Shown here piece by piece: positions 12 to 42,139 of a stretch of DNA of 64,000 nucleotides (its first letter is position 1; each line of letters begins with the position of its first letter). The notes beneath the pieces are model-generated. The model had not been told where the DNA came from, searched no databases, and worked only from the letters and a program-made list of their open reading frames with translations. The position numbers and the translations under genes are program-made. This stretch comes from Escherichia phage 235Ecol030PP. The stretch lies in the sequence record PP355091.1, one strand, 5' to 3'.

Positions 12-2189
12 TTAGGCCGCAAGGGCCTTCATAGTTTTAGCGATTTGGGAAACTTCATCATCACTTAAAGAACTGCGATATCCGATGAAGTCGGAAACAA
101 TACGGAATTTCTTGGTAAACTCAGCAACCATTTTATCACTGTTTTTTGAAGCATTATTTGATAATACATCAAAAAGATTAGTTACTGTCCAGATGTCATG
201 ACCAATGGTATCTTTTCCACCATTAAAATATACACCGCGCAATGAACTAACTATATTAGCGAGTCGTGTATATTCTTCAGAAACTTCATCTGTACTGAAG
301 TACTTCATCATAAAATCTAGTTCAGGATACTTGATAATTTTATCAATATATCGTTGAGCTGAACTTGAATAACCTACATACTTATCATAATCTACATCAT
401 CAAAAGCATCTACATATAAATCACGCAAAGCTTCAAAAATACATTGGCACTGACCGAGTTCTTTTACCTTTTTCTGCAAAAGCGGACGAATAACATAAAA
501 TTCATTAATGCCAATAAGATTAGCCATACGAATCAAAATATTCATAGATGGATGACAAAGAGATGTAGTACCATCCATAGAGAAAATATCAGAACGATGC
601 ATATACGCTACATACCCAGTAATTTCATCTGCTTCTGATGTAAGCGTAAATAATTCCTCTTTTTCCCAGCGCCCGTCTTTAATTTCAAACTTAAATGCTG
701 TAGCAGCTTTAGGACGAGGAGCTTTACTTTTAACTACCTTTGGAATATAGCTTTTAACTAAAGCTTCAATTTCTGACAAATAATGAATGTTAACTTCATC
801 ACTTTCAAACATTGCCATAATATCAGGAAGCAAATCAATCTGCGATTCTACTTCTGGGTTAATAAACAGAAGACGCTCATTGTGATGAATATTCAAAGTG
901 TTATTAAATTCACTATCATCTAACGCATGTGCTAATCCACGGACAATATTAACACGATTTTTAATATTATCAATAACGATATTAATTTTTGTTGTATTAA
1001 TACCAAACAGACGATAACTTGATGCAACGGCTGAAGTTTCATGACTTTGCTTAATGCGCTTCAGTCGAGGGTCAAGATTTACTTCATACACAACCCCTGC
1101 ATTACATAACTTACTGTCAGGTTCAAACATGCTCTGCATCTTTTTATATGACAGATTTTTAGTCGTGAATTTGACTGAATTGCTAATCATATAATCTCGA
1201 GCAGAATACCCCATCTTCATCAATTCACGATATGTGTGACGAGGAGATGTAGATTCTTTAAATCGTTTTACATCTTCATTAAATGCTTTCTCACTAAGCT
1301 CTTTAACTCGTTCAATAATATTTTTACGAGTACGATCATCCAGTGAAAGAGCTTCACGTGATGGAGCAATATCAAGTGAACCCATTGGAAACTTAATGTA
1401 ATTCACTTCATTGCGAATGCTTAGCCAGTTACGGTCTCTAATAACACCATCGATAGGATAAACAATACCGCCGTAGATAGCATATAATCCGCCACGATCA
1501 GGCCAGTATCTTTCTGGATTTACACCATAATAATCATCAAAATCCGGAAAATAATCAATTTCGCGGTCAAGACCATTAATGATAGCCAAATCTTTGAACG
1601 GTCGCATGATATAAGAAACTTCATAAGCAAAGTTTCTAAAGTCTTTTTCTTCAACTGGAACTACGATTTCAATACCAGTTTTATCATCTGGACCCATTTC
1701 TTTTACGAATGTAGGTTTAATCTGTGGACCATCACCATCCATGTAAGCTACATAACCACGAATTTCACCTTTATGATACGAAGTAATACTAAACGTATCA
1801 GTATAACTAAACGGAGATTTAGAACCTAAACCAAATCCGCCAATGAAATCGTTAGATTCAGCCTTAGATGAACTGAAGTATGAATTATACAACCCAGGAG
1901 AATTATCATCACCCTGAATATCAAAATCACTCATACCCGGACCAAAATCTCGGCAAACAAATCGTGGATCTAAACGTCCAGGAACTTGTATGATAAATTT
2001 TTCAGGATTTCCATTGAGAGCATGGGCATCAATCATGTTGGTAATTAATTCACGGACTACTGCGCGAATCTTGTTTGTATACAAATCAGATGATAGAATT
2101 TTAAATACTTTAGGAGATGCTGTGATGCTAAATGCTTTTGATTTAGAACCATTACCAAGAATTGTTTCTTTTTCAGTGGTGATAATCAT
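12..2189 (-). CDS. rIIA: rIIA-like protein, 725 aa
   Basis: 725-aa ORF with GHKL/Bergerat-like N-terminal segment ([10 protein letters not shown]); size and position next to topoisomerase gene match T-even rIIA; recalled, not searched. Confidence 0.85.
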
Positions 2190-2199
2190 AATTTCCTCA

Positions 2200-2403
2200 T
2201 TAATTCATATTGCGTTTAATAACTTCAGCAACTTCTAGTAGTTCATCTTTAGTTGCGGTGTCGGATTGAATTTTATCTCTAATATCTTTAAAGCGGTTTT
2301 TAAATTCTTCGGCTTCTCCCATATCGAAAAAGCGTTGAATGATTCTATATTCTCGATGAACTGCTTTATCAAAAAGTTCTAAATTTACTTTATATGATTT
2401 CAT
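2200..2403 (-). CDS. hypothetical protein, 67 aa (positional equivalent of rIIA.1)
   Basis: compact ORF between topoisomerase gene and rIIA, downstream of an early promoter. Confidence 0.55.
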
Positions 2404-2428: not shown

Positions 2429-2458
2429 ATTATACCACATCCTTGTGGTAAAGTAAAC
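2429..2458 (-). promoter_or_regulatory. T4-type early promoter (GTTTAC -35, TGnTATAAT -10)
   Basis: minus strand GTTTAC-18nt-TATAAT with TGG extension. Confidence 0.7.
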
Positions 2459-4278
2459 TACTGGCTCATCCATTCTTTACGAAGGTCAGCATTATCTCCC
2501 ATGAGCATTTCAAAAAGCTCTTTCCAGTTCTCAGGAAGTTTAACAACATCATATACTGGGTTTTGAATCATCTCACGATATTCAGATTTTTCCAAAGAGC
2601 CAAGTCCCTTAATATAACGGATGCTATGTTTAGGTAGAGTATCTTTGGCACTCTCATATTCAGCGACTGTATAAAACCATTCTTGTTTTTTACCGACCTG
2701 AGCGATGATTACAGGAGTTTTGACAAAGCGAATTCGTCCTTGCTCAAACAATTCTGGCCAATTACTAAAAAATCCGAGCAGAGAAGGATAAATGCTTCCT
2801 AGACCATCATGGTCAGCATCAGTCATAATAGCGATATTATGATAATTCAAGTTTTCAGCTTTTTCACCAAGAACTAGACCAGTTATTGCGCAAATATCAA
2901 ACAGTTCTTTGTTTTTAAGCATATCTGCATAAGACATACCCCAACTGTTGAGAACTTTACCACGTAATGGATAACCACCGTGAAGTTCTTTATCACGAAC
3001 ATCAATAAGATATCCGATAGCCGAATCACCCTCAGTCAAGAAAAGAGTAGTGTCAGCATCTTTACCACAAAGATTCGCTTTAATATGTTTATGAACCTTA
3101 GCTTTAGAAGCCTTTTTAGCCGCTTTAGTTTCTGCTGCTTTTTCTGCCGCCAATTTACGAGCTAATGCTGCTTCAATAATCGGCATTAAAATTGCTTCAT
3201 TATTTAGAATAGCACGTGAAATCTTTTTAGCATCAAGTTGAATATGACTACGGATTTCACCAAATGGAGAAGTCAAACGCTCTTTAGTTTGAGAATCAAA
3301 TCGCATGTTTTTCATATCACGAACAAACATAACGATAGTCAAACATTCTTTGACACGCGCTTTAGTTACATCAATTTTGAATTTACGTTTGATTTGTGGA
3401 ATAAGGTCTTCACAAATATCATCCATAACACAGTCAATGTGATGGCCACCATTCTTAGTGTGAATGTTATTCACATAAGTTAATTGACGAAAACCATCCG
3501 GTGAACGACCAACCGCAATAGAACAATTTTCTTGTTCTTGAACGATAGCATGTTCATCATACTGTCGTGCATATTTCTTAAAATTGCCCTGAACCTTTTT
3601 ACCATTAAAGGTAAATTGAATATCAGGATAAACTACTGCAAGTGTCTGGAGACGATCCAGTGTAATGTCAAGATAAACTTGGGACAGCTCATTAGTTTCA
3701 AATGACATAAAATCTGGAATGAAAGTAACACGAGTTCCTTTCCATTTTCCAGGAATAGTTTCCCAGGATTTATTTTCCATGCCATTTGAACAACGAACTA
3801 CAATATTATTTTGACCATCGCCAGTTTCACCAACAAACATCACAGAAAAAATGTTTGTCAAACTAGAACCAACACCATTCATACCGCCAGTGACGCGTTC
3901 TTTATCATCACCGAAGTTACCACCTGCTTTTGGAATAGTCCATGCAGCAACAGGACCAGGAATTTCTTCACCGGTAGGTGTTTTAACCATCGCCTGTGGA
4001 ATACCACGACCGTTATCTTCAACTGTTACTTGATTGTTTTTAATAGTAACATTAATTTTATTTGCGAATTTAAACTTAGTACGAATACCTTCATCTACTG
4101 AGTTATCGATAATTTCATCAATAAGCTTAACAAGACCAGGTACATACTGAACACTTTCCCATTTACCAAACAGAAAGCGCTCATGCATTTCATTAGCAGA
4201 AGAGCCAATGTACATGCCGCTACGCTTTTTGATATGTTCAATATCGCTCAGAATTTTAATTTCATTCTTAATCATCAC
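2458..4278 (-). CDS. 39: DNA topoisomerase II large subunit (GyrB-like ATPase + Toprim), unsplit 606 aa
   Basis: KRSGMYIGS ATPase N-terminus, GHKL motifs, Toprim LTEGDSA and DxD (TDADHDG); continuous ORF, no internal stop or bypass gap. Confidence 0.9.
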   Translation of the reverse strand: MMIKNEIKILSDIEHIKKRSGMYIGSSANEMHERFLFGKWESVQYVPGLVKLIDEIIDNSVDEGIRTKFKFANKINVTIKNNQVTVEDNGRGIPQAMVKTPTGEEIPGPVAAWTIPKAGGNFGDDKERVTGGMNGVGSSLTNIFSVMFVGETGDGQNNIVVRCSNGMENKSWETIPGKWKGTRVTFIPDFMSFETNELSQVYLDITLDRLQTLAVVYPDIQFTFNGKKVQGNFKKYARQYDEHAIVQEQENCSIAVGRSPDGFRQLTYVNNIHTKNGGHHIDCVMDDICEDLIPQIKRKFKIDVTKARVKECLTIVMFVRDMKNMRFDSQTKERLTSPFGEIRSHIQLDAKKISRAILNNEAILMPIIEAALARKLAAEKAAETKAAKKASKAKVHKHIKANLCGKDADTTLFLTEGDSAIGYLIDVRDKELHGGYPLRGKVLNSWGMSYADMLKNKELFDICAITGLVLGEKAENLNYHNIAIMTDADHDGLGSIYPSLLGFFSNWPELFEQGRIRFVKTPVIIAQVGKKQEWFYTVAEYESAKDTLPKHSIRYIKGLGSLEKSEYREMIQNPVYDVVKLPENWKELFEMLMGDNADLRKEWMSQ

Positions 4279-4330
4279 TTATCCTCGTTTGGTTTCGGGA
4301 ATATTATACTCCGGTAATCATAAAGTTAAA

Positions 4331-4342
4331 GGCCCGAAGGCC
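4331..4342 (-). other. UUCG-tetraloop hairpin upstream of the topoisomerase gene
   Basis: GGCC-UUCG-GGCC. Confidence 0.5.
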
Positions 4343-4344
4343 TT

Positions 4345-4605
4345 TTATTTAAAACGAATAGTTGAATCCTTAAAGAACAGCCCAGAACATACTGTTCCTT
4401 CTACTTTCTGCCCGGTAGGTCCAATAGCACGAAATCCAGTATGTTGGAAATCATTTTCAGAGCAACCGAGCCAGTTATATCCAGTGATTTCAATATTAGT
4501 AAAACCACTTGAAGACAAAACTTTGGTTGCATTATCAGCATCAGTACATCCTGCTAAAGACACTGCTAATACTAATGCTGCAATAGAACGATTAACATAT
4601 TTCAT
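4345..4605 (-). CDS. putative lipoprotein, 86 aa
   Basis: N-terminal signal peptide with lipobox (LAGC). Confidence 0.6.
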   Translation of the reverse strand: MKYVNRSIAALVLAVSLAGCTDADNATKVLSSSGFTNIEITGYNWLGCSENDFQHTGFRAIGPTGQKVEGTVCSGLFFKDSTIRFK

Positions 4606-4607
4606 AA

Positions 4608-4784
4608 TTACCCTTTAAGCAAGTCGTAAAATCCGCCATTCACATGCTTAGGAGCGGAAACTAACCGAATAGCAATCCGATGACAATCAGGACATACATC
4701 AGTATCCCTTTCAGAAATTTTCTTGATTTTTTCGTATTCTTTTGCGCAGTCTTTGGATTGGCATTTATAATCATAAAGCGGCAT
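4608..4784 (-). CDS. small zinc-ribbon protein (FmdB-like CxxC...CxxC), 58 aa
   Basis: ATG start 3 nt after upstream stop; two CxxC pairs (CQSKDC, CPDC); below ORF-track length cutoff, translated by hand. Confidence 0.45.
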   Translation of the reverse strand: MPLYDYKCQSKDCAKEYEKIKKISERDTDVCPDCHRIAIRLVSAPKHVNGGFYDLLKG

Positions 4785-14533: not shown

Positions 14534-14770
14534 TTAACCACCTATTGATGTAGGCGTAAACATTGCAGCATTCTTAGTTTTCCAAGTTGCTGCATCGGAA
14601 ACTACATCAGAATATGCTGCCTTTTCAGAAGGAAAGGTCTGATAATGAGAATCTGCAATACGATGCTCGTTAGAATAGATTTCAAATGGAACAGAAACTT
14701 CCATACCTTTAACTTCTTTGCCTTCACCCGCTGGATGAGTAAAGGTCTTGATGTTAACGAAACCACCCAT
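14534..14770 (-). CDS. soc: small outer capsid protein Soc (RB69-like variant), 78 aa
   Basis: MGGFVNIKTF...HYQTFPSEKAAY matches Soc family; late promoter TATAAATA upstream; terminator downstream. Confidence 0.8.
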   Translation of the reverse strand: MGGFVNIKTFTHPAGEGKEVKGMEVSVPFEIYSNEHRIADSHYQTFPSEKAAYSDVVSDAATWKTKNAAMFTPTSIGG

Positions 14771-14801
14771 AATAAACTCCTTTATTGTTTAATTACAGGT
14801 G

Positions 14802-14809
14802 TATTTATA
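14802..14809 (-). promoter_or_regulatory. late promoter (TATAAATA) for soc
   Basis: exact TATAAATA on minus strand ~35 nt upstream of soc ATG. Confidence 0.65.
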
Positions 14810-14951
14810 ACTTACAATTTAGCGGCTTTCCAGAGTTGTTCAATAATCTCTTGGTCTATTTCTTTAGTTATTTCATTACGTAATAAAGCAGTAAGGGCTT
14901 TCGCCCTTTTCTTATTCAACTTTTTGAGTTGGCGTTTATTTAAACGGGACA

Positions 14952-15470
14952 TTAATAACCTCGGTCTTGACGTGCGAAATTTTCAGCATTTTTCAGATAA
15001 TAAAGTTTAAAGATTTCTTCTGCTGTAAGACCAAGACCCTGGAACATATTCAGAACGAAATGAAGAATATCAATCATTTCGAATTTAATTTCCAACTGGT
15101 CTTGTGGAGACAAATCAGTAATCAGAGTTTCACGTCGTTCACCATGTTGTGCCTTCCACGGCTTCCATACACTGCTGGCGGCTTTTTCACCATTGCTCAT
15201 ACCACCAAGTGAAGTCAGCAGTTCACGGAATTCATCATCAATATAATCTTTCTGATTACGCAGCCAATCAACAACATCACCAGCAGTGGCCAATTCATCA
15301 GGATGTTTGTTATGTTTAGGCTTGTCATTTGCCAGACGAACCTGTAGAGATTTCTGCATGTCAAGCATTACCTGCAGCGGGTCTTTTTCATCACCGAGAA
15401 TATCCCAATATTCATTTTGAGCTTTATCAGCGCCTTCGATCAGATGACTACATTCGTTGAAATGTGGCAT
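14952..15470 (-). CDS. 56: dCTP pyrophosphatase (MazG-like), 172 aa
   Basis: size and position between soc and primase region; MazG-like helical fold assumed; recalled T4 gp56 ~171 aa. Confidence 0.7.
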   Translation of the reverse strand: MPHFNECSHLIEGADKAQNEYWDILGDEKDPLQVMLDMQKSLQVRLANDKPKHNKHPDELATAGDVVDWLRNQKDYIDDEFRELLTSLGGMSNGEKAASSVWKPWKAQHGERRETLITDLSPQDQLEIKFEMIDILHFVLNMFQGLGLTAEEIFKLYYLKNAENFARQDRGY

Positions 15471-15471
15471 G

Positions 15472-16122
15472 TTATTTTTCCTTTCTTATGAAGTTTTCTA
15501 TCATATGTCTATAGCAGATATTAGGATAACCTGCCTTGACAGCTATTTTATTAAATTTTGTGCGCTTAGGTCTATTATTATAAACCCACAACTCGTAAAG
15601 CGAATCATACGAATTCCATATCTCACCACGTCTTGGATTCGGTAAACCATATCGAGGTGAATTTTTACCGCTAAATCTTCCTTTTCGGGCTTTACTCATA
15701 TTAGCCTTGGCTTCATCGGATATAATTTTACCTTTATGAGCTAGACGCATTTTAGCCTTAGTTTCTTCAGGTGTTTTTAACCCCTTTATCCACGATGGTT
15801 TTCCAAACCTTGGATTATTTTCACCCGAGAAAAGAGCAGAGTTTTGGATTTTAAGAGTTTCTATTAATCTACTTGTTAATTTAACACCTTTATTATATCG
15901 CATTAAATTTACAGCATAATGCAATCCTCTCACATCTGGATATATTTTAGTTAATAATCTATGAGCTATAAAATGCTCACGCGCAGTTAACTCAACAAGA
16001 TTGTTTTTGCCATCTTCTCCTCCCATACATCTAGGAATTATATGATGGCGTTCTTTATATCCGCCAAGATTCCGGCATTTAGCTTTTGTAATTAAAGCCG
16101 AGTAAATTTTTTGGTAATTCAC
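15472..16122 (-). CDS. HNH (His-Me finger) homing endonuclease with NUMOD3-like repeats, 216 aa, GTG start
   Basis: motif ERHHIIP...N...EHFIAH; basic GK/KG repeats; C-terminal helix-turn-helix-like tail also seen in the other endonuclease ORFs in this window. Confidence 0.7.
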   Translation of the reverse strand: MNYQKIYSALITKAKCRNLGGYKERHHIIPRCMGGEDGKNNLVELTAREHFIAHRLLTKIYPDVRGLHYAVNLMRYNKGVKLTSRLIETLKIQNSALFSGENNPRFGKPSWIKGLKTPEETKAKMRLAHKGKIISDEAKANMSKARKGRFSGKNSPRYGLPNPRRGEIWNSYDSLYELWVYNNRPKRTKFNKIAVKAGYPNICYRHMIENFIRKEK

Positions 16123-16155
16123 ATATATCCTTTCAATTCATGGGTTAGTAGATTA

Positions 16156-16179
16156 ATTATACAATAAATATATAAAGCA
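16156..16179 (-). promoter_or_regulatory. MotA-box middle promoter candidate (TGCTTTA-11nt-TATAAT) upstream of the HNH gene and gene 56
   Basis: minus-strand TGCTTTA followed 11 nt later by TATAAT. Confidence 0.5.
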
Positions 16180-16192
16180 ATAAGGAGGATAT

Positions 16193-16393
16193 ATGGTACA
16201 AAAATTAATGGCACTTGTTAATGCCATCAAAGGTAATAAAAAGCGTATAGCTTTTACTATTTCTGCTATGGTAGGAATTTTACTCTGGAACTTTATTTTA
16301 TCACCTGTTGCTATTGCTCATGGCGTTAGTATTCCAGTAGTTACTCTTGATACATTCGTAGATTTAGCATTTGCTTTAGTTGGGTTAATTTAA
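16193..16393 (+). CDS. plus-strand small hydrophobic protein, 66 aa (putative 2-TM membrane peptide)
   Basis: strong SD AAGGAGG 4 nt before ATG; hydrophobic segments; lone plus-strand ORF in a minus-strand region. Confidence 0.4.
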   Translation: MVQKLMALVNAIKGNKKRIAFTISAMVGILLWNFILSPVAIAHGVSIPVVTLDTFVDLAFALVGLI

Positions 16394-17418
16394 ATCTTAG
16401 CATATTTAGATAGCCGCATTTTAGCCATTAACCCCTGGGCAATATTATTTTTCATATATTCCATAATTTGTTCAGGGGTTGCACCTTCCTTTCTAATCAT
16501 ATCATTAACATCTTTTGATTTCCAGGGAGATTTATCCCAAAACATAACCCTTTCTCCTGCATCAACTAATTTAGTCATTCGCTTAATAGTGTCAGGATGA
16601 CGAGGTTCATTATCTAAAACCCACACTCGTCTATCTTTAAATGGAACAACTTCTAGGTCTAATTGACCACCCGTAATAGCTATACCATTTTCAATAAAAA
16701 GTGAATCTATAGGTCCTTCTAGAACATATACATCGCCATCTTTAACTCGTTCGACTCCATAGATTTTTGTTGCTTCAGGATAAGCTTTGATGGTGATATA
16801 TTTTTGAGGAGCATCTTTCTTTAATGCACGTCCTTGAAAAGACTCAGCTTTTCCATTAGCATTATAAATTGGAATAACAAGACGAGGCTCAGAAATTTCC
16901 TTTTTATATGTTCCCGGTGCTATGCTATTAACCAATTTAGGCCATTCGGTTGTAAACCAAAGATATTTCCATTTATCCTTTGGAATACAACGAGCTTTTA
17001 CGTATTTTATAATTGGATGGTCTTCCGCCAATTTATCTAATCTAACGCATGACGGAAGAGATTTAATTATTTTCTTTTCAGGTTGTTTAGGAAGTTCTTT
17101 AGGTTTTTCTACTGGACGACTTTTACCTTTTTCTTTTCTTATTTCAAAGATATACTCACGATATAAATCAGGTTCAAACTCCTTTAAATATATTCCGATT
17201 GGTGCATGATAATTACAGTTATAACAATGAATATTTCCTTCATTATTATCACCATAATACCATCCACGGGCTTTATTTTGGTCGGTTTTTGAATCTCCAC
17301 ACACTGGGCATCTAAACCGTAATTTAAAAGTTGAACTATTATTTACTTGTGTGAATTTAGGTAAATGAGCTAATGCACGGTATGCAAACTCATTATCAAT
17401 CCAAGGTATTGATGACAT
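16390..17418 (-). CDS. 61: DNA primase (zinc ribbon + Toprim), 342 aa
   Basis: CPVCGD...CYNC zinc ribbon, Toprim acidic motifs; size matches gp61. Confidence 0.9.
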   Translation of the reverse strand: MSSIPWIDNEFAYRALAHLPKFTQVNNSSTFKLRFRCPVCGDSKTDQNKARGWYYGDNNEGNIHCYNCNYHAPIGIYLKEFEPDLYREYIFEIRKEKGKSRPVEKPKELPKQPEKKIIKSLPSCVRLDKLAEDHPIIKYVKARCIPKDKWKYLWFTTEWPKLVNSIAPGTYKKEISEPRLVIPIYNANGKAESFQGRALKKDAPQKYITIKAYPEATKIYGVERVKDGDVYVLEGPIDSLFIENGIAITGGQLDLEVVPFKDRRVWVLDNEPRHPDTIKRMTKLVDAGERVMFWDKSPWKSKDVNDMIRKEGATPEQIMEYMKNNIAQGLMAKMRLSKYAKI

Positions 17419-17583
17419 TTTTACTCTTCTTTTTCTTTAGATTCCTCTTTTTTCTTTTTAGGAATCTGTTCAGGACCTTTATTTACTACAGCGCCTGATG
17501 TTGTTCCAGTAGAGATATTTTCAGGACTACCACCTGAATCTCCAGCGACCATATCTTCTTTGATAAATTCTTTATATGTTTTC
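17419..17583 (-). CDS. small acidic/basic protein, 54 aa (position of T4 61.1)
   Basis: hand-translated ORF MKTYKEFIKEDM...; below track cutoff. Confidence 0.4.
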
Positions 17584-17586
17584 ATA

Positions 17587-18213
17587 TTAACCTCTATTCA
17601 TAAAAGCATTAAAAATTTGGTCATCAATAGAAACATTTGCTTTAGACTGTTTTTCGGATGGTAATTCATATCCACATATTACAATTTTATGATCAATATC
17701 AAAATACACAGAAGCAATATGATTAATGCTGTTTTCAGTAAAGTCTAAATCAACATCAATATCTTTTTGACCACAGCCCAAAGGATAAATAATGCGAGTA
17801 ATTCGATTATCTTTAACAAAGATTCCACCGACATACTCTGTGCTGCGTTTAAAGTCTACACGCCGACGAAATGAAAAATATTCAGGCTCTTTATGAGCTC
17901 GGCTCATAGGGCATAACGAATAACTAGAATAAGAGATGTCAAATCCTACGCCTTCAATATGAACTAAATTGTCATGATTAAACCAATTATAATCATATGC
18001 CAAGTCCATTAGATTGTCATATGTGAAAGGCACCGGATTAACATCATTGGTCACAAGCATATAATTAGCAACTGCTATAATTTCATTATTTTTAACGAAT
18101 ACAAACCGTGATTGATGCGAATGGCCTGGACCTGCGTTTTCACGATTAATGATATAACACTGGGCACCTTTATATTTGTATGTATCTTTGCACTTGTGCA
18201 TTTGATAAAGCAT
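17587..18213 (-). CDS. hypothetical protein, 208 aa (position of T4 61.2)
   Basis: ORF; its first 39 codons and 5' leader are duplicated in tandem upstream. Confidence 0.7.
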   Translation of the reverse strand: MLYQMHKCKDTYKYKGAQCYIINRENAGPGHSHQSRFVFVKNNEIIAVANYMLVTNDVNPVPFTYDNLMDLAYDYNWFNHDNLVHIEGVGFDISYSSYSLCPMSRAHKEPEYFSFRRRVDFKRSTEYVGGIFVKDNRITRIIYPLGCGQKDIDVDLDFTENSINHIASVYFDIDHKIVICGYELPSEKQSKANVSIDDQIFNAFMNRG

Positions 18214-22165: not shown

Positions 22166-22843
22166 TTATAGTAGTGTTCTTGTTCCACGAAATACTTCGA
22201 GCATTCTTGCATAAGATTTATTTGGAAATCCAGCTTCAATTGCTAATTTTTTAAGCTTAATAGCACCGGGTTTTCCAGAGTTTTCCCATATTTCTTTAAT
22301 CTTTTCAATGTTATCCCACATTATTGGGTCACGTTTATGTGATGGTTTATTTCTATTATAACCATATGGATTATTAAGCAAAGCTTCTTTTCGTTTTGCT
22401 TTAGTTTCTTCTGACTGCTTTTTGCCTAGCTGGGCTTTCCGGCAAACATCACTAAATCCAAGATGTTTTGGTTTTCCTTTTTGAGCTTTTGAAATTTTTT
22501 CTTTGGTTTCTGATGAAACTCTATAACCAATTCTTCTACCACCCTCTCCACCAATTTTTAAATTATAAGTCATAGGATCATTTACCACATCTATTGTTAC
22601 TAATTCTCTTTCAGCATCACGGGCTGATTTAAAATCTTTATAAAACCCAAGAATGCTTAAATTAAAATTTTTCTTACCATACTTTTTCTTGGCTTGTGCT
22701 AATAAAGTTCCTGACCCCATATAACCATCATTTAAATCATCGGTTGAATGAGTTCCATAGTAAATTTTATTATTAACTAAATTAGTTATAACATAAGTAT
22801 AATTATATTTCTTTTCTTTATGTCTTTTCATGTCATTAATCAA
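22166..22843 (-). CDS. GIY-YIG homing endonuclease (Seg-like), 225 aa
   Basis: N-terminal YVITN...KIYYGTH (GIY-YIG), basic NUMOD-like repeats, C-terminal DNA-binding tail. Confidence 0.75.
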   Translation of the reverse strand: MINDMKRHKEKKYNYTYVITNLVNNKIYYGTHSTDDLNDGYMGSGTLLAQAKKKYGKKNFNLSILGFYKDFKSARDAERELVTIDVVNDPMTYNLKIGGEGGRRIGYRVSSETKEKISKAQKGKPKHLGFSDVCRKAQLGKKQSEETKAKRKEALLNNPYGYNRNKPSHKRDPIMWDNIEKIKEIWENSGKPGAIKLKKLAIEAGFPNKSYARMLEVFRGTRTLL

Positions 22844-23684
22844 CTGCTATTGGATGAATAGCATTAAACTTATGAAATGCTTCTGATTTTTCTTTACGCG
22901 AAACGCACATGCGAAGAACCTTTAGTGGTTCATCTTCTTCACCCAACGATTTTCGTTTTTCAATATTAGAAGTTTTCCAACGAGCTTGCTCTGGAAACTC
23001 TCTATTGATTTGTTCAAGCGCTCTATTATGTTTAGAATTACTACGAATTGAACTACACCCACCGGGAGCGTGTGATTTTCCAGATACAACCAGATATTTG
23101 AACAAAGCCAAATGTGGATAACCTTGATTAATTAAATTGAGAAATGCATACATATCTTCACATAAATCAATTTTTCCATACCCAATTTGTTCTGTCGTAA
23201 GTTTTCCGAGGTCATACCATGTATTCGTGAATCCATATGAATTTTCACGATAATTACCCCAAGATGAAGTAATTTTAAAAATAGGTAGACGAGCATGACC
23301 GTGATAATACCCGCAATCCATGGCATCTTCAACATATTGAATCAATTCATAGAACTGTTCACGAGTTAATTGATTAATTTTATCTACGCGCCGTTTATCG
23401 TCTCTCTTTCGTATTGAACTCATACGAATAGTAGTATCATCATCAATCATCCATATTCGTTGACCTGCATACATATCAGTAATTGCTTTACGAGTACCGG
23501 AAATTCCATTAACATCATCAGGAATAGTTACAATTTTAGCTCTAGACCCATAGGCATCATAATAAGCTTTTTCTTCATGTTCACGCACTACAATATGGGG
23601 TTCATAATCAATCGGAAACATATCAAGGGCAGAAACTGCCCCTACACGTTGATAGCTCGGAATTACGAATTGAATCATTTCCAC
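22836..23684 (-). CDS. GT-A-fold glycosyltransferase, 282 aa (at the beta-gt locus)
   Basis: N-terminal VIPSYQR and DxD-like IWMIDDD; does not match my recollection of T4 beta-gt (351 aa). Confidence 0.5.
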   Translation of the reverse strand: MEMIQFVIPSYQRVGAVSALDMFPIDYEPHIVVREHEEKAYYDAYGSRAKIVTIPDDVNGISGTRKAITDMYAGQRIWMIDDDTTIRMSSIRKRDDKRRVDKINQLTREQFYELIQYVEDAMDCGYYHGHARLPIFKITSSWGNYRENSYGFTNTWYDLGKLTTEQIGYGKIDLCEDMYAFLNLINQGYPHLALFKYLVVSGKSHAPGGCSSIRSNSKHNRALEQINREFPEQARWKTSNIEKRKSLGEEDEPLKVLRMCVSRKEKSEAFHKFNAIHPIAVD

Positions 23685-35292: not shown

Positions 35293-36492
35293 TTTTGTAA
35301 TAATGTCAAACTGTTCTTTAAAGCAGAAGCTTGAATCTTGATGCTGATACAAAAATTCATATGCTTTTTCTCGCTCACGGTCATAAAGAGCTCGGTCAGA
35401 TGACAGTTCTTTAATACGCTCGAATGTTGATTCCATATCATTTTCATCAAACCAAATGATACCGCTATCATGTGAGGTCAAAGGAGTATTATCAACACGG
35501 AATTTTAAATTTTCGCCAGTAGATTTCCAAAATACCGGAATTGTTCCACATGCACCAAGCTCGAGATGAGTATATTCTAAAGAACGTTGTAAGTATTTCT
35601 GGTTAAGTTTACTCAACTGATATCCAAAGCCAGATTTACTCATTCGTTCAAGCATTTCACTATTAATATAACAATCTAGGATTTGTGCCGGTTGATTCGG
35701 CGTGAGATTCATTTTATCAATCTCACGATTACCATAATATTCATACGGAATACCTTTTTCCTTAATTGCAATAAAAGCAGGGGAACGTTCAAGACCTTCC
35801 ATTACAGTGGATTTACCAGCAGGTTTTAAGAATTTTTCGTGAAAATCAAACATCTGATAAAAACCTTTCCATGTAGTCGTACGACCAATCCAACGGTTGA
35901 TGTTCATGTTAATTTCAGAAACATCTTTCCAGTAGGTTGATCGAACCTTCGCAATATCCATAGGAGGCTGAAAGTTATATACTGCCGGCGCTTCTTCAAT
36001 ATCATCAAACAAAGAAACTGTTTCAGGATACCATTCTTTCATCAGAACTTTATTAAAATCGCCATTATCAGAATGACTAAAAATAACATCAGCTCGACGA
36101 ACAGTTTCTTCTAATCCCAAATTTCGACGCAAAGAAAGAACAGAATGATCATGCTGATAAACTACAACACGAATAGAAGGTTTAATATTATCTAAAAGTT
36201 TTTTATAGTTATTAATCGTGGCTTCTTGAACGGAAGTAGCAGGAACAGAATTAATAATTAGAATATCACAATCATTTACCAGCTTAAGTGCTTTATCGTA
36301 TTCTTTAGCTAAAATAACTGGAATTGAAAATGATTTGTGGTCATGAGAACTTGTACGAGTAAATGATTTATCTTTAGCATAAACCAAAGTTACTTCATGA
36401 CCATTTTTAATAAACCAATCACGTTGCTCAAGAGAAAATTTAGTTACACCGCAACCTTCAAGACCTCGAGCCAGAAAAATGCATACTTTCAT
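35290..36492 (-). CDS. a-gt: DNA alpha-glucosyltransferase, 400 aa
   Basis: size 400 aa and sequence recalled as T4 alpha-gt; putative middle promoter upstream. Confidence 0.8.
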   Translation of the reverse strand: MKVCIFLARGLEGCGVTKFSLEQRDWFIKNGHEVTLVYAKDKSFTRTSSHDHKSFSIPVILAKEYDKALKLVNDCDILIINSVPATSVQEATINNYKKLLDNIKPSIRVVVYQHDHSVLSLRRNLGLEETVRRADVIFSHSDNGDFNKVLMKEWYPETVSLFDDIEEAPAVYNFQPPMDIAKVRSTYWKDVSEINMNINRWIGRTTTWKGFYQMFDFHEKFLKPAGKSTVMEGLERSPAFIAIKEKGIPYEYYGNREIDKMNLTPNQPAQILDCYINSEMLERMSKSGFGYQLSKLNQKYLQRSLEYTHLELGACGTIPVFWKSTGENLKFRVDNTPLTSHDSGIIWFDENDMESTFERIKELSSDRALYDREREKAYEFLYQHQDSSFCFKEQFDIITK

Positions 36493-36516
36493 TTAATATC
36501 CTCATTGTTTTGGTTT

Positions 36517-37447: not shown

Positions 37448-37994
37448 ATAAAAAATCCAAACTAGGAGAATCGTCTACAACACTTTTCTTTTCAGCCCCC
37501 GGTGTTCTATAGGTTGATTCTTCGTAATGCGTCATTTTATCGTAGATGTCTTGAATAAAAGTTTCATCTACTAACGCAACCATATCGTCGTCACGGCTGT
37601 CATAGACATTGTGAACGAAGTAACTATATTTCTTTGCAACTTCCTTACGTTCTTTTTTAATACGTTGGACGAATGCATTAAAACAAGCTTGAGTTATATA
37701 CGCATGTGGGTTTTTATATTTCGTTTCATCAAAATTATGAAGCCCCTTAATAGAAGCTTCTATACCATCTGCAATCATTTCTTGTTTCCAAGACTGGGTG
37801 TATCCTGAAAAGTTGAAACGTTTAGATAAGCCTTCTGCAATAAGCATAATGGCTAATCCGATAGTATCATTCTGACGAACTACTTTATTTGGGTCTTTAT
37901 TATTTGCTAATTCTGTTTTCCAATCAATAATAGCTTGTAAAAGCTCTTTATTGTTTACGTAATTATATTTAGGCTTAGTTTCTGACATTTTCAC
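37431..37994 (-). CDS. 55: late-transcription sigma factor gp55, 187 aa
   Basis: size and position; recalled N-terminus of T4 gp55. Confidence 0.8.
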
Positions 37995-38066
37995 CTCTTA
38001 GCTCAATTCATAGATCTATTATATCATAACATTTGAAGATCTATCTTAAAGCATAGAGGATATCAG

Positions 38067-38336
38067 TTATCTAAGTAAGCAGTATGCTTGGAATACTTTC
38101 TCCATCATCTTTTTAAATTCATGAATATCTATATAATGACTAGTTAGATCAGCATGATATAAAAAGTCTAAAAACTTTTCATGTGTGCTAACATATTCGC
38201 TTTCATTTAATTCAGAAACATGGCTTTCCCAATATCCAACACCAGTCTTATTTGGGAAAAATGAAATTTTCATATATTGGTCAACATAGAAAATACCAAA
38301 ATTTTCAATAGCAATAGAAATATTAATAAATTTCAT
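38067..38336 (-). CDS. hypothetical protein, 89 aa
   Basis: ORF. Confidence 0.45.
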   Translation of the reverse strand: MKFINISIAIENFGIFYVDQYMKISFFPNKTGVGYWESHVSELNESEYVSTHEKFLDFLYHADLTSHYIDIHEFKKMMEKVFQAYCLLR

Positions 38337-38548
38337 ACATTCATCAACTTAGCCGCTTCAAGAGCTGCATCTAGTGAATCAAATTGGTCAACGTATTCAA
38401 TCAATTCGCCATAATTAGCGTATAACCACCATTGGCTAAATTCATACTCAAGGATGAATCCATTTCCTTCAATTTGAGTTAAACCAATGCCATTTGTATT
38501 TACTTCGTATCCGGCAAGACGCAAATCATTGATAAGAGATTCATTCAT
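38333..38548 (-). CDS. hypothetical protein, 71 aa
   Basis: ORF. Confidence 0.45.
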   Translation of the reverse strand: MNESLINDLRLAGYEVNTNGIGLTQIEGNGFILEYEFSQWWLYANYGELIEYVDQFDSLDAALEAAKLMNV

Positions 38549-38550
38549 AA

Positions 38551-38877
38551 TTATGCCTTAGTAATTTTCAGATCAGCAAATTTTTTCTTGCGTTGATTTT
38601 TCATACGACGAATAGTTTTATCGGAAATTTCATGTTTTTGATAAGCTTTAGATTCTACACCAAAAGCTTTAACATCAAATTCTGACAAGATATATTGAAC
38701 CAACAATTCACGGACAGTATTGCGTCCAATCTTCTGATCATTCTGTTTCATCATCTGATGAAGCTCTTTTTCCCATTTATCCAAAATTTGAGGAGTTACA
38801 ATATCGTCTTTTTCTAGCAAAGAAACTACTTTATCATATGCGTAAGAATTAATGACGTTTTTAATTTGAATAGTCAT
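38551..38877 (-). CDS. hypothetical protein, 108 aa
   Basis: ORF. Confidence 0.5.
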   Translation of the reverse strand: MTIQIKNVINSYAYDKVVSLLEKDDIVTPQILDKWEKELHQMMKQNDQKIGRNTVRELLVQYILSEFDVKAFGVESKAYQKHEISDKTIRRMKNQRKKKFADLKITKA

Positions 38878-40839: not shown

Positions 40840-41310
40840 TTAATCATGTTTCCACACCCCATCGGTATTTGACCAAAGTCGCTGATTATCTGATCCTCGC
40901 CACAGCTTTTTAGTCGGAAGATTTTTCTCATACTTCCCATCAATAATAACATCAACATATTTAAGCATTTCTAGTTGTTTAATATCTTCAAACTTATATC
41001 CTGTCCACAACCAAATGCTTTTATTTGGATAAAGATTTTTTACTGTTTGAACAATGCAATGAATAACATCTCGATTATCAGGATAGAGAGGGTCACCTCC
41101 GGTTATAGTCAATCCTTCTATATAATCATTATTCAAACATTCAATTAATTGTTCTAGTGTTTCACCAGTGAATGGAATACCATTTCTAGCATTCCATGTT
41201 GATTTATTATAACACCCTTCGCATTTATGCAAACAACCTGTAACGAAAAGAACTGTCCTGCATCCAGGGCCATTCACAAAGCAGCACGGGTATATTCTGT
41301 CATAATTCAT
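40840..41310 (-). CDS. nrdG: anaerobic RNR activating protein (radical SAM), 156 aa
   Basis: CxxxCxxC cluster (CLHKCEGCYN), size 156 aa. Confidence 0.85.
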   Translation of the reverse strand: MNYDRIYPCCFVNGPGCRTVLFVTGCLHKCEGCYNKSTWNARNGIPFTGETLEQLIECLNNDYIEGLTITGGDPLYPDNRDVIHCIVQTVKNLYPNKSIWLWTGYKFEDIKQLEMLKYVDVIIDGKYEKNLPTKKLWRGSDNQRLWSNTDGVWKHD

Positions 41311-42139
41311 TTATATATTTCCAATTATAGCCTTCAACACTTTTACGTTCGCCATTTAAACATTTTAAAATATTTCCTTTGCTAGAAATATTAAAATATT
41401 TTGCTGCGTCTGGTATATAATTAAATGTTTTTAAAAGAACACCATCTTTATATGCGCCAAATAAATTAAGAGTATATTTTTCTCGAAGACGTTGATGTTT
41501 CCTTTTCATAACCTCAGGATTTGCATACGCCAACCTCAATGAATTTCTATGTTTTTCTTTTACTTCAGGTTTTTGCATTGCTAACTTAGTTAGCCTGGAA
41601 ATTTTATTTCTAACTTCGTCAGTTTTCATTGCATTTGACAAATTTAATAAAGTTTTATTTCTAACTTCAGGTTTTTGCATTGCTAACTTAGTTAGTTCTC
41701 TATGTCTTTTTCTAAAATCGTCATCCTTCCATATATTTTTCGATAATTTTGACATAGAGCGGTGAAATAATTCCTTTTCACCGGAATACAATTTAAGAAT
41801 TTCATCCAATTCATCTGTATTAAATCTATCGGTATTCGAGTTTATCATTCTATGAAAGGCATAACACATTTTACTATTACTTGTTTTAGCTAAATAGTAA
41901 TGAGCTAACGCGTGGTCATAATATGACAAATTAACAATATTCCATTTATCTGTTTTATATTCAGGAAATATAGATTTGGGAAGCACGTGATGTGCTTCCG
42001 TTTTTCCTTTTATTTTAGGATTATTATAATTTTTTGTTATCAAATCAACATATGACAATAGTAAATCATTATTTTCTTCAAATATTAAAGATAATTTATC
42101 ATTCACAAAATCGCAAGGATAAAATCTATCATAATTCAT
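41300..42139 (-). CDS. HNH homing endonuclease (Mob-like), 279 aa, with NUMOD3 repeats
   Basis: AHHVLP...N...DHALAH HNH motif; duplicated LTKLAMQKPEV units; first 13 codons mimic the nrdG N-terminus. Confidence 0.75.
   Translation of the reverse strand: MNYDRFYPCDFVNDKLSLIFEENNDLLLSYVDLITKNYNNPKIKGKTEAHHVLPKSIFPEYKTDKWNIVNLSYYDHALAHYYLAKTSNSKMCYAFHRMINSNTDRFNTDELDEILKLYSGEKELFHRSMSKLSKNIWKDDDFRKRHRELTKLAMQKPEVRNKTLLNLSNAMKTDEVRNKISRLTKLAMQKPEVKEKHRNSLRLAYANPEVMKRKHQRLREKYTLNLFGAYKDGVLLKTFNYIPDAAKYFNISSKGNILKCLNGERKSVEGYNWKYINEL
41566..41700. repeat. direct repeat of ~27 nt within the HNH gene (NUMOD3 repeat units)
   Basis: aggtttttgcattgctaacttagttag occurs twice about 103 nt apart. Confidence 0.8.

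Follow-up and report, generated by a model that had tools for sequence, protein, structure and literature searches.

Escherichia phage 235Ecol030PP carries an unsplit gene 39 for the topoisomerase II large subunit, with an empty MobA/bypass element site predicted to be a MobA homing target

The type II topoisomerase of phage T4 relaxes DNA rather than supercoiling it. Its large subunit is encoded in T4 by separate genes; the reference annotation (NC_000866) lists gene 39 (516 aa), mobA/60.1 and gene 60 (160 aa), with gene 60 joined across a 50-nt 'non-coding translational bypass region' (2803..2852). In other T4-related phages the subunit is a single ORF annotated as gene 39 (PMC3014915, 2010 review). 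The T6 protein is among these, and together with gp52 it forms an active heterotetramer in which E415, D486 and D488 make up the Toprim metal site; relaxation assays have been reported for the phage enzyme in the same study (PMC11461880). The MobA element that interrupts the gene in T4-type phages has been described as 1097-1106 nt long and as accompanied by the deletion of 64 nt, with its insertion at nt 1399-1419 and its 3' end just past G491 plus 9 nt in clade 1 (bioRxiv 10.1101/2022.08.31.505936). It encodes a 'homR' copy of the target which is 67-81% identical to the parental sequence (bioRxiv 10.1101/2022.08.31.505936).

The DNA analysed here, called the window, is a stretch of 64,000 nucleotides from Escherichia phage 235Ecol030PP (PP355091.1). 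According to the ORF list and its translation, a minus-strand ORF runs from 2458 to 4278 without an internal stop and counts 606 codons from a GTG. The per-codon stop probability is ~0.079 for the composition of the window on the minus strand, and 606 consecutive open codons would arise with a chance of ~3e-22, so this is not a chance ORF. The initial annotation had described a topoisomerase large subunit in one continuous 606-aa ORF at 2458-4278; its coordinates and the open frame stand, the strand, which it did not give, is minus, and the length is corrected to 605 aa, counted from the ATG at 4275. The features at the two ends of the gene are as follows.

2458..4275, minus strand: gene 39, DNA topoisomerase II large (GyrB-like) subunit, an uninterrupted frame of 605 codons closed by TAG (2460..2458)
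4276..4278, minus strand: GTG codon which extends the mechanical ORF to 606 aa, 3 nt past GAGGA and directly after an in-frame TAA
4282..4286, minus strand: Shine-Dalgarno-like GAGGA, 6 nt upstream of the ATG at 4275..4273, read from the sequence

The ORF matches the PHROGs family phrog_543, 'DNA topoisomerase II large subunit', with E=2e-295, and four domains can be placed along it.

3829..4137, minus strand: GHKL ATPase core, aa 47-149 (Pfam HATPase_c, E=1.9e-9, 38.4 bits against a cut-off of 26.4)
3124..3528, minus strand: transducer domain, aa 250-384 (Pfam DNA_gyraseB, E=1.4e-13, 51.1 bits against a cut-off of 27)
2800..3048, minus strand: Toprim domain, aa 410-492 (Pfam Toprim, 17.5 bits, under the gathering threshold of 23.1)
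2464..2721, minus strand: C-terminal Toprim-associated domain, aa 519-604 (Pfam TOPRIM_C, E=3.2e-7)

All three sequence features of a type IIA B subunit, that is the GHKL motifs, the QTK lysine and the Toprim E...DxD, are found in the ORF. The ATPase motifs are the N-box EIIDNSVDE (aa 54-62), G1 DNGRGIP (87-93) and G2 GGMNGVGSS (130-138), and the QTK loop lies at aa 329-331, inside the transducer domain. The Toprim metal residues are present as E415 in LTEGDSA and as D486, D488 and D490 in TDADHDG, with E415, D486 and D488 aligned residue for residue to the T6 structure. The Toprim assignment should therefore hold despite its sub-threshold Pfam score, as the motif residues and a solved homologue cover it. 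The ATPase and Toprim domains thus lie in one frame, as had been proposed, the former scoring above its threshold and the latter below it but with E415, D486 and D488 in place.

When solved structures were searched with the protein, the order of matches was T6 gp39, an engineered T4 gp39-gp60 fusion (8YO3), then human Topo II alpha/beta, ParE and GyrB, over the full length. T6 gp39 (YP_010067157.1; PDB 8YLU, 8YO1, 8YO5, 8YO7, 8YOD, 8YON, 9IMJ) is one polypeptide of 605 aa, identical to the window protein at 603 of 605 positions in a gapless alignment; the two substitutions are Q526 and T546 in the window for H and A in T6, and the genes differ by ~2.6% at the nucleotide level. T2 gp39 (AP018813, BBF63163.1) is also unsplit, 605 aa long and in the same genomic position adjoining rIIA.1, with 602 of 605 residues identical and three substitutions (F70L, T173D and T546A) between it and the window protein. 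The initial annotation had likened the locus to the unsplit state of other T-even phages, and these two single 605-aa genes in the same position, two and three residues different, are in line with this. More distant are the bacterial GyrB/ParE proteins and the N-terminal half of eukaryotic topoisomerase II, which share the domain order (GHKL ATPase, transducer, Toprim); the window protein aligns over its full length with human Topo II alpha/beta (E~1e-59) and ParE (E~1e-48), although these are distant sequences, and the phage enzyme is without the GyrB insertion domain.

From the 99.7%-identical T6 protein, for which ATP-dependent strand passage has been demonstrated by experiment (PMC11461880), this activity and pairing with gp52 may be expected of the window protein. 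Its single polypeptide would comprise the GHKL ATPase, the transducer, an Ala/Lys-rich linker, Toprim and the C-terminal domain. Homology with T6 predicts that gp39 and gp52, the GyrA-like partner in which the catalytic tyrosine resides, would assemble at two copies each into an A2B2 enzyme which, judging from its homologues, would relax DNA using ATP, with the Toprim residues E415, D486 and D488 predicted to hold the Mg2+ required for cleavage. A tblastn search with T4 gp52 gave no match for the gene 52 partner within the 64-kb window; in T4 gene 52 is located at 163.9-165.2 kb, i.e. beyond the region that the window covers.

Compared with T4, the window ORF follows gp39 over residues 1-473 (98.3% identity) and then gp60 over approximately residues 27-160 (94.8%) in collinear order, and there is no counterpart in the ORF for gp39 residues 474-516 or gp60 residues 1-26. 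The T4 element comprises a 43-aa tail on gp39, mobA, a gp60 leader of ~30 aa and a 50-nt untranslated gap following a GGA codon, and the window gene is without all four. At the take-off position, where T4 has GGA, the window has GGT followed by CTA GGA AGC. The Toprim domain, which is continuous in the window gene, is divided between gp39 and gp60 in T4, and as the split falls between E415 and D486, the Toprim metal site is shared there by two polypeptides. T4 differs from the window because a mobile element of ~1.1 kb has inserted between codons 473 and 491. Two positions in the window mark where it would lie.

2794..2857, minus strand: empty site, the 64 nt that are replaced by the MobA/bypass element in T4-type genomes, and a predicted MobA homing target
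2802..2803, minus strand: insertion point of the T4 50-nt gap, between Gly491 (GGT, 2805..2803) and Leu492 (CTA, 2802..2800), placed by codon alignment

Searches of the window for parts of the element agree with this comparison. The products of T4 60.1 and mobA gave nothing significant against the ORF by blastp, and the 50-nt gap sequence of T4 has 0 matches in the whole window with up to 3 mismatches allowed. When the whole T4 insert was compared with the window by blastn, only a homologous stretch of 46 nt (2849..2804) matched, and no displaced copy of the insert or of the 50-nt gap was detected anywhere in the window. The local RNA fold at the junction is unremarkable (z = -1.5). The initial annotation had reported that the frame contains neither a 50-nt bypass element nor an inserted endonuclease gene, and both statements are upheld by these searches; it had also stated correctly that T4 splits the subunit into genes 39 and 60 with a bypass, both genes and the 50-nt region being annotated in NC_000866, and the alignment with T4 39, 60 and mobA by which it suggested checking its reading gave the collinear gp39 and gp60 segments above and no significant match for mobA.

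The junctions can be placed precisely. The site measures 64 nt in the window, against 1117 nt in the T4 reference and 1106 nt in Shigella phage ESh36, in which mobA is unsplit, unlike in the T4 reference. The 5' junction follows ORF nt 1419 (codon 473), and the junction positions in the window agree with the published boundaries of the element. Against a 'virtual unsplit' T4 gene, 24 mismatches fall in ORF nt 1415-1515 and 0-6 in each other 101-nt segment; in the same nt 1415-1515 the window differs from T2 by 1 nt and from T6 by 2 nt. Codons 474-496 contain ten synonymous and five non-synonymous differences from T4. This divergent stretch of T4 is the element-encoded 'homR' copy of the target.

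Two minor differences of the T4 reference were seen in the course of this comparison. Its gp39 (NC_000866 3778..5328) has LIR at residues 326-328, in contrast to FDS in the window, T2 and T6, and its mobA (2971..3767) is split into '60.1' and a 37-aa 'mobA', where T4T has an intact 272-aa mobA with 11 fewer nt. Both the LIR residues and the split mobA look like peculiarities of the reference sequence or laboratory-strain mutations.

The unsplit form is the common one. The gene is matched by 663 phage records, 498 of them at >=90% identity, and the T4 insert is found in 43 records, all of which are >=95% identical to it. On the assumption that these 43 belong to the close group, approximately nine in ten of the close relatives are unsplit. 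A further figure, the 648 records that cover >=80% of the ORF in one place, is not a count of unsplit genes and could not be used as one, because pieces up to ~1.4 kb apart were joined and T4-type genomes are included; the insert-bearing records were counted directly in its place. In a collection without the window's own genome, identity to the best matches is 98.2% for the gene and ~96% for 25 kb.

Taken together, it can be said with high confidence that this Tequatrovirus has an intact gene 39 free of the cassette, which by prediction is a susceptible MobA target. Two other readings concern the frame itself. The continuous frame might be an artefact of assembly or sequencing, or a pseudogene that hides a defect, such as the concealed frameshift or stop that resequencing would expose; this is hardly credible, however, as the ORF aligns without gaps at 603 of 605 residues to a T6 protein that has been expressed and solved experimentally, the 1818-nt gene is the same in hundreds of independent genomes, and the catalytic motifs are all intact. 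Translation could also begin at the GTG at 4278, giving a protein of 606 aa: bacteria can initiate at GTG, and no start codon precedes this one in the frame, where the minus strand reads TAA (4281..4279), GTG (4278..4276) and then ATG (4275..4273). The spacer from GAGGA is 3 nt to this GTG against 6 nt to the ATG, and the proteins of the annotated relatives that were inspected begin with MIKNEIK, the N-terminus common to T4 gp39 and the solved T6 protein; an ATG start with 1818 nt and 605 aa is annotated in T2, T6, G8 and UPWr_E2. The longer product is accordingly very unlikely. Because the GAGGA spacing and the annotated start of the relatives favour the ATG at 4275, this is almost certainly where translation begins, for a predicted product of 605 aa.

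The reading of the gene as intact and cassette-free leaves room for different histories of the allele. It may be a secondary revertant, in which a T4-type ancestor cleanly lost the MobA/bypass element by recombination with an uninserted gene 39, and such a lineage would be a natural example of a homing event reversed, with the function of the gene unchanged. This would fit with the best match over 25 kb, Shigella phage ESh36, which carries the MobA element, and with the upstream 39.1 lying directly beside 39.2 with no extra 105-123-aa ORF, as in T4T and ESh36 and unlike T2, T6 and G8. However, there is no remnant in the window gene of either the C-terminal or the N-terminal extension that the element adds, none of the T4-type silent polymorphisms is left in 2794..2857, a stretch of T2/T6-type sequence, and the flanks are no more than 95-97% identical to those of ESh36, so the window and ESh36 are not a recent pair with and without the element. 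The mosaicism of T-even phages accounts for the mixed affinities without any reversion, and this ordinary mosaicism is a simpler account than a gain followed by a clean loss. Reversion is thus considered improbable, if somewhat less so than either of the readings that concern the frame.

Whichever its history, the gene 39 described here, without the element, has a sequence at the site which closely resembles that of T2. In a 105-nt alignment across the junction the window has 1 mismatch to T2 and 5 to T6, mostly outside the 64 nt. In T2, MobA is described as nicking inside this region, ~20 nt upstream of the gap position (Bonocora et al. 2011, as cited in bioRxiv 10.1101/2022.08.31.505936), a position that maps near 2823 in the window, and the same preprint states that it is the gap, not the polymorphisms, which shields T4 from its own endonuclease (bioRxiv 10.1101/2022.08.31.505936). 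As 104 of 105 nt across the site are identical in the window and T2, we infer that gene 39 here would be cleaved by MobA, and it is predicted to be susceptible to homing in a co-infection with a T4-type phage.

That gene 39 can be unsplit is already known, and finding it so here repeats what textbooks and reviews state (Virol J 2010; Nat Commun 2024; bioRxiv 2022); the window protein is essentially that whose structure was solved in 2024, and the source phage is one more member of Tequatrovirus. For annotation, a single 605-aa topoisomerase II large subunit should be called from the ATG at 4275, with no recoding event. The empty site makes the phage one that could receive the MobA/bypass element, and it could serve in studies of homing or of the origin of translational bypassing, although hundreds of sequenced phages offer the same site.

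The neighbourhood of the gene is that of T4: rIIA, rIIA.1, 39.1 and 39.2 flank it in the window and in T4 alike. The window opens as a T-even genome record does, with rIIA (12..2189) and rIIA.1 (2200..2403) on the minus strand and numbered exactly as in T4 NC_000866. Directly past the stop codon of gene 39, and facing rIIA.1 and rIIA, there is a strong sigma-70-like promoter match at 2429..2457 (minus strand; TTTACT, a 17-nt spacer and TG-TATAAT, 10/12). Upstream of gene 39 two further elements were read from the sequence.

4331..4342, minus strand: GGCC-TTCG-GGCC hairpin and then TTTAACTTT, following closely on the 39.1-like ORF upstream
4308..4303, minus strand: TATAAT

These represent a possible candidate terminator and promoter, respectively, ahead of gene 39. 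In phage G8 a 'putative transcriptional terminator' is annotated at the position of the hairpin, and a consensus scan directly upstream of gene 39 called no terminator or promoter.

At 4345..4784 (minus strand) an 86-aa homologue of 39.1 abuts a 58-aa zinc-ribbon homologue of 39.2, as in T4T and ESh36. The 39.1 homologue has a lipoprotein-like N-terminus (MKYVNRSIAALVLAVSLAGC) and belongs to phrog_902, a family of unknown function. In T2, T6, G8 and many other relatives an extra ORF of 105-123 aa (~377 nt) is present between 39.1 and 39.2. The ~377 extra bases that appeared in matches to relatives were considered as an insertion inside gene 39 and rejected, as they are this ORF between the 39.1 and 39.2 homologues.

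MobA-like tblastn matches at ~16 kb and ~42 kb were likewise considered as parts of the gene 39 locus and rejected, and they correspond to separate Mob-family HNH genes. The first is a 216-aa Mob-family HNH homing endonuclease ORF (15472..16122, minus strand; phrog_655, E=9e-59), which shares 49% identity with T4T MobA over that protein's first 92 aa and lies directly upstream of the gene 56 dCTPase homologue (14952..15470). This region spans 1641 nt in the window (14541..16181) against 2387 nt in T4 (15338..17724; soc, segF, 56, dam); the homologues of soc (14534..14770) and of 56 (14952..15470) are still present, and segF and dam were not detected by megablast in the soc-56 region of the window. 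The second is a 279-aa Mob-family HNH endonuclease ORF (41300..42139, minus strand; phrog_655, E=4e-36) at the position of T4 mobC, between nrdG and nrdD, with DNA that is much diverged from T4. T4 mobB is absent, with 24 nt in the window (36484..36507) against 861 nt in T4 (37818..38678).

A 282-aa ORF at 22836..23684 (minus strand) matches beta-glucosyl-HMC-alpha-glucosyltransferase (phrog_842, E=5e-87) and is the T2/T6-type enzyme in place of the T4 beta-glucosyltransferase, so that the DNA glucosylation pattern of this phage is probably T2/T6-like. A segA-like endonuclease ORF (22166..22843) adjoins it.
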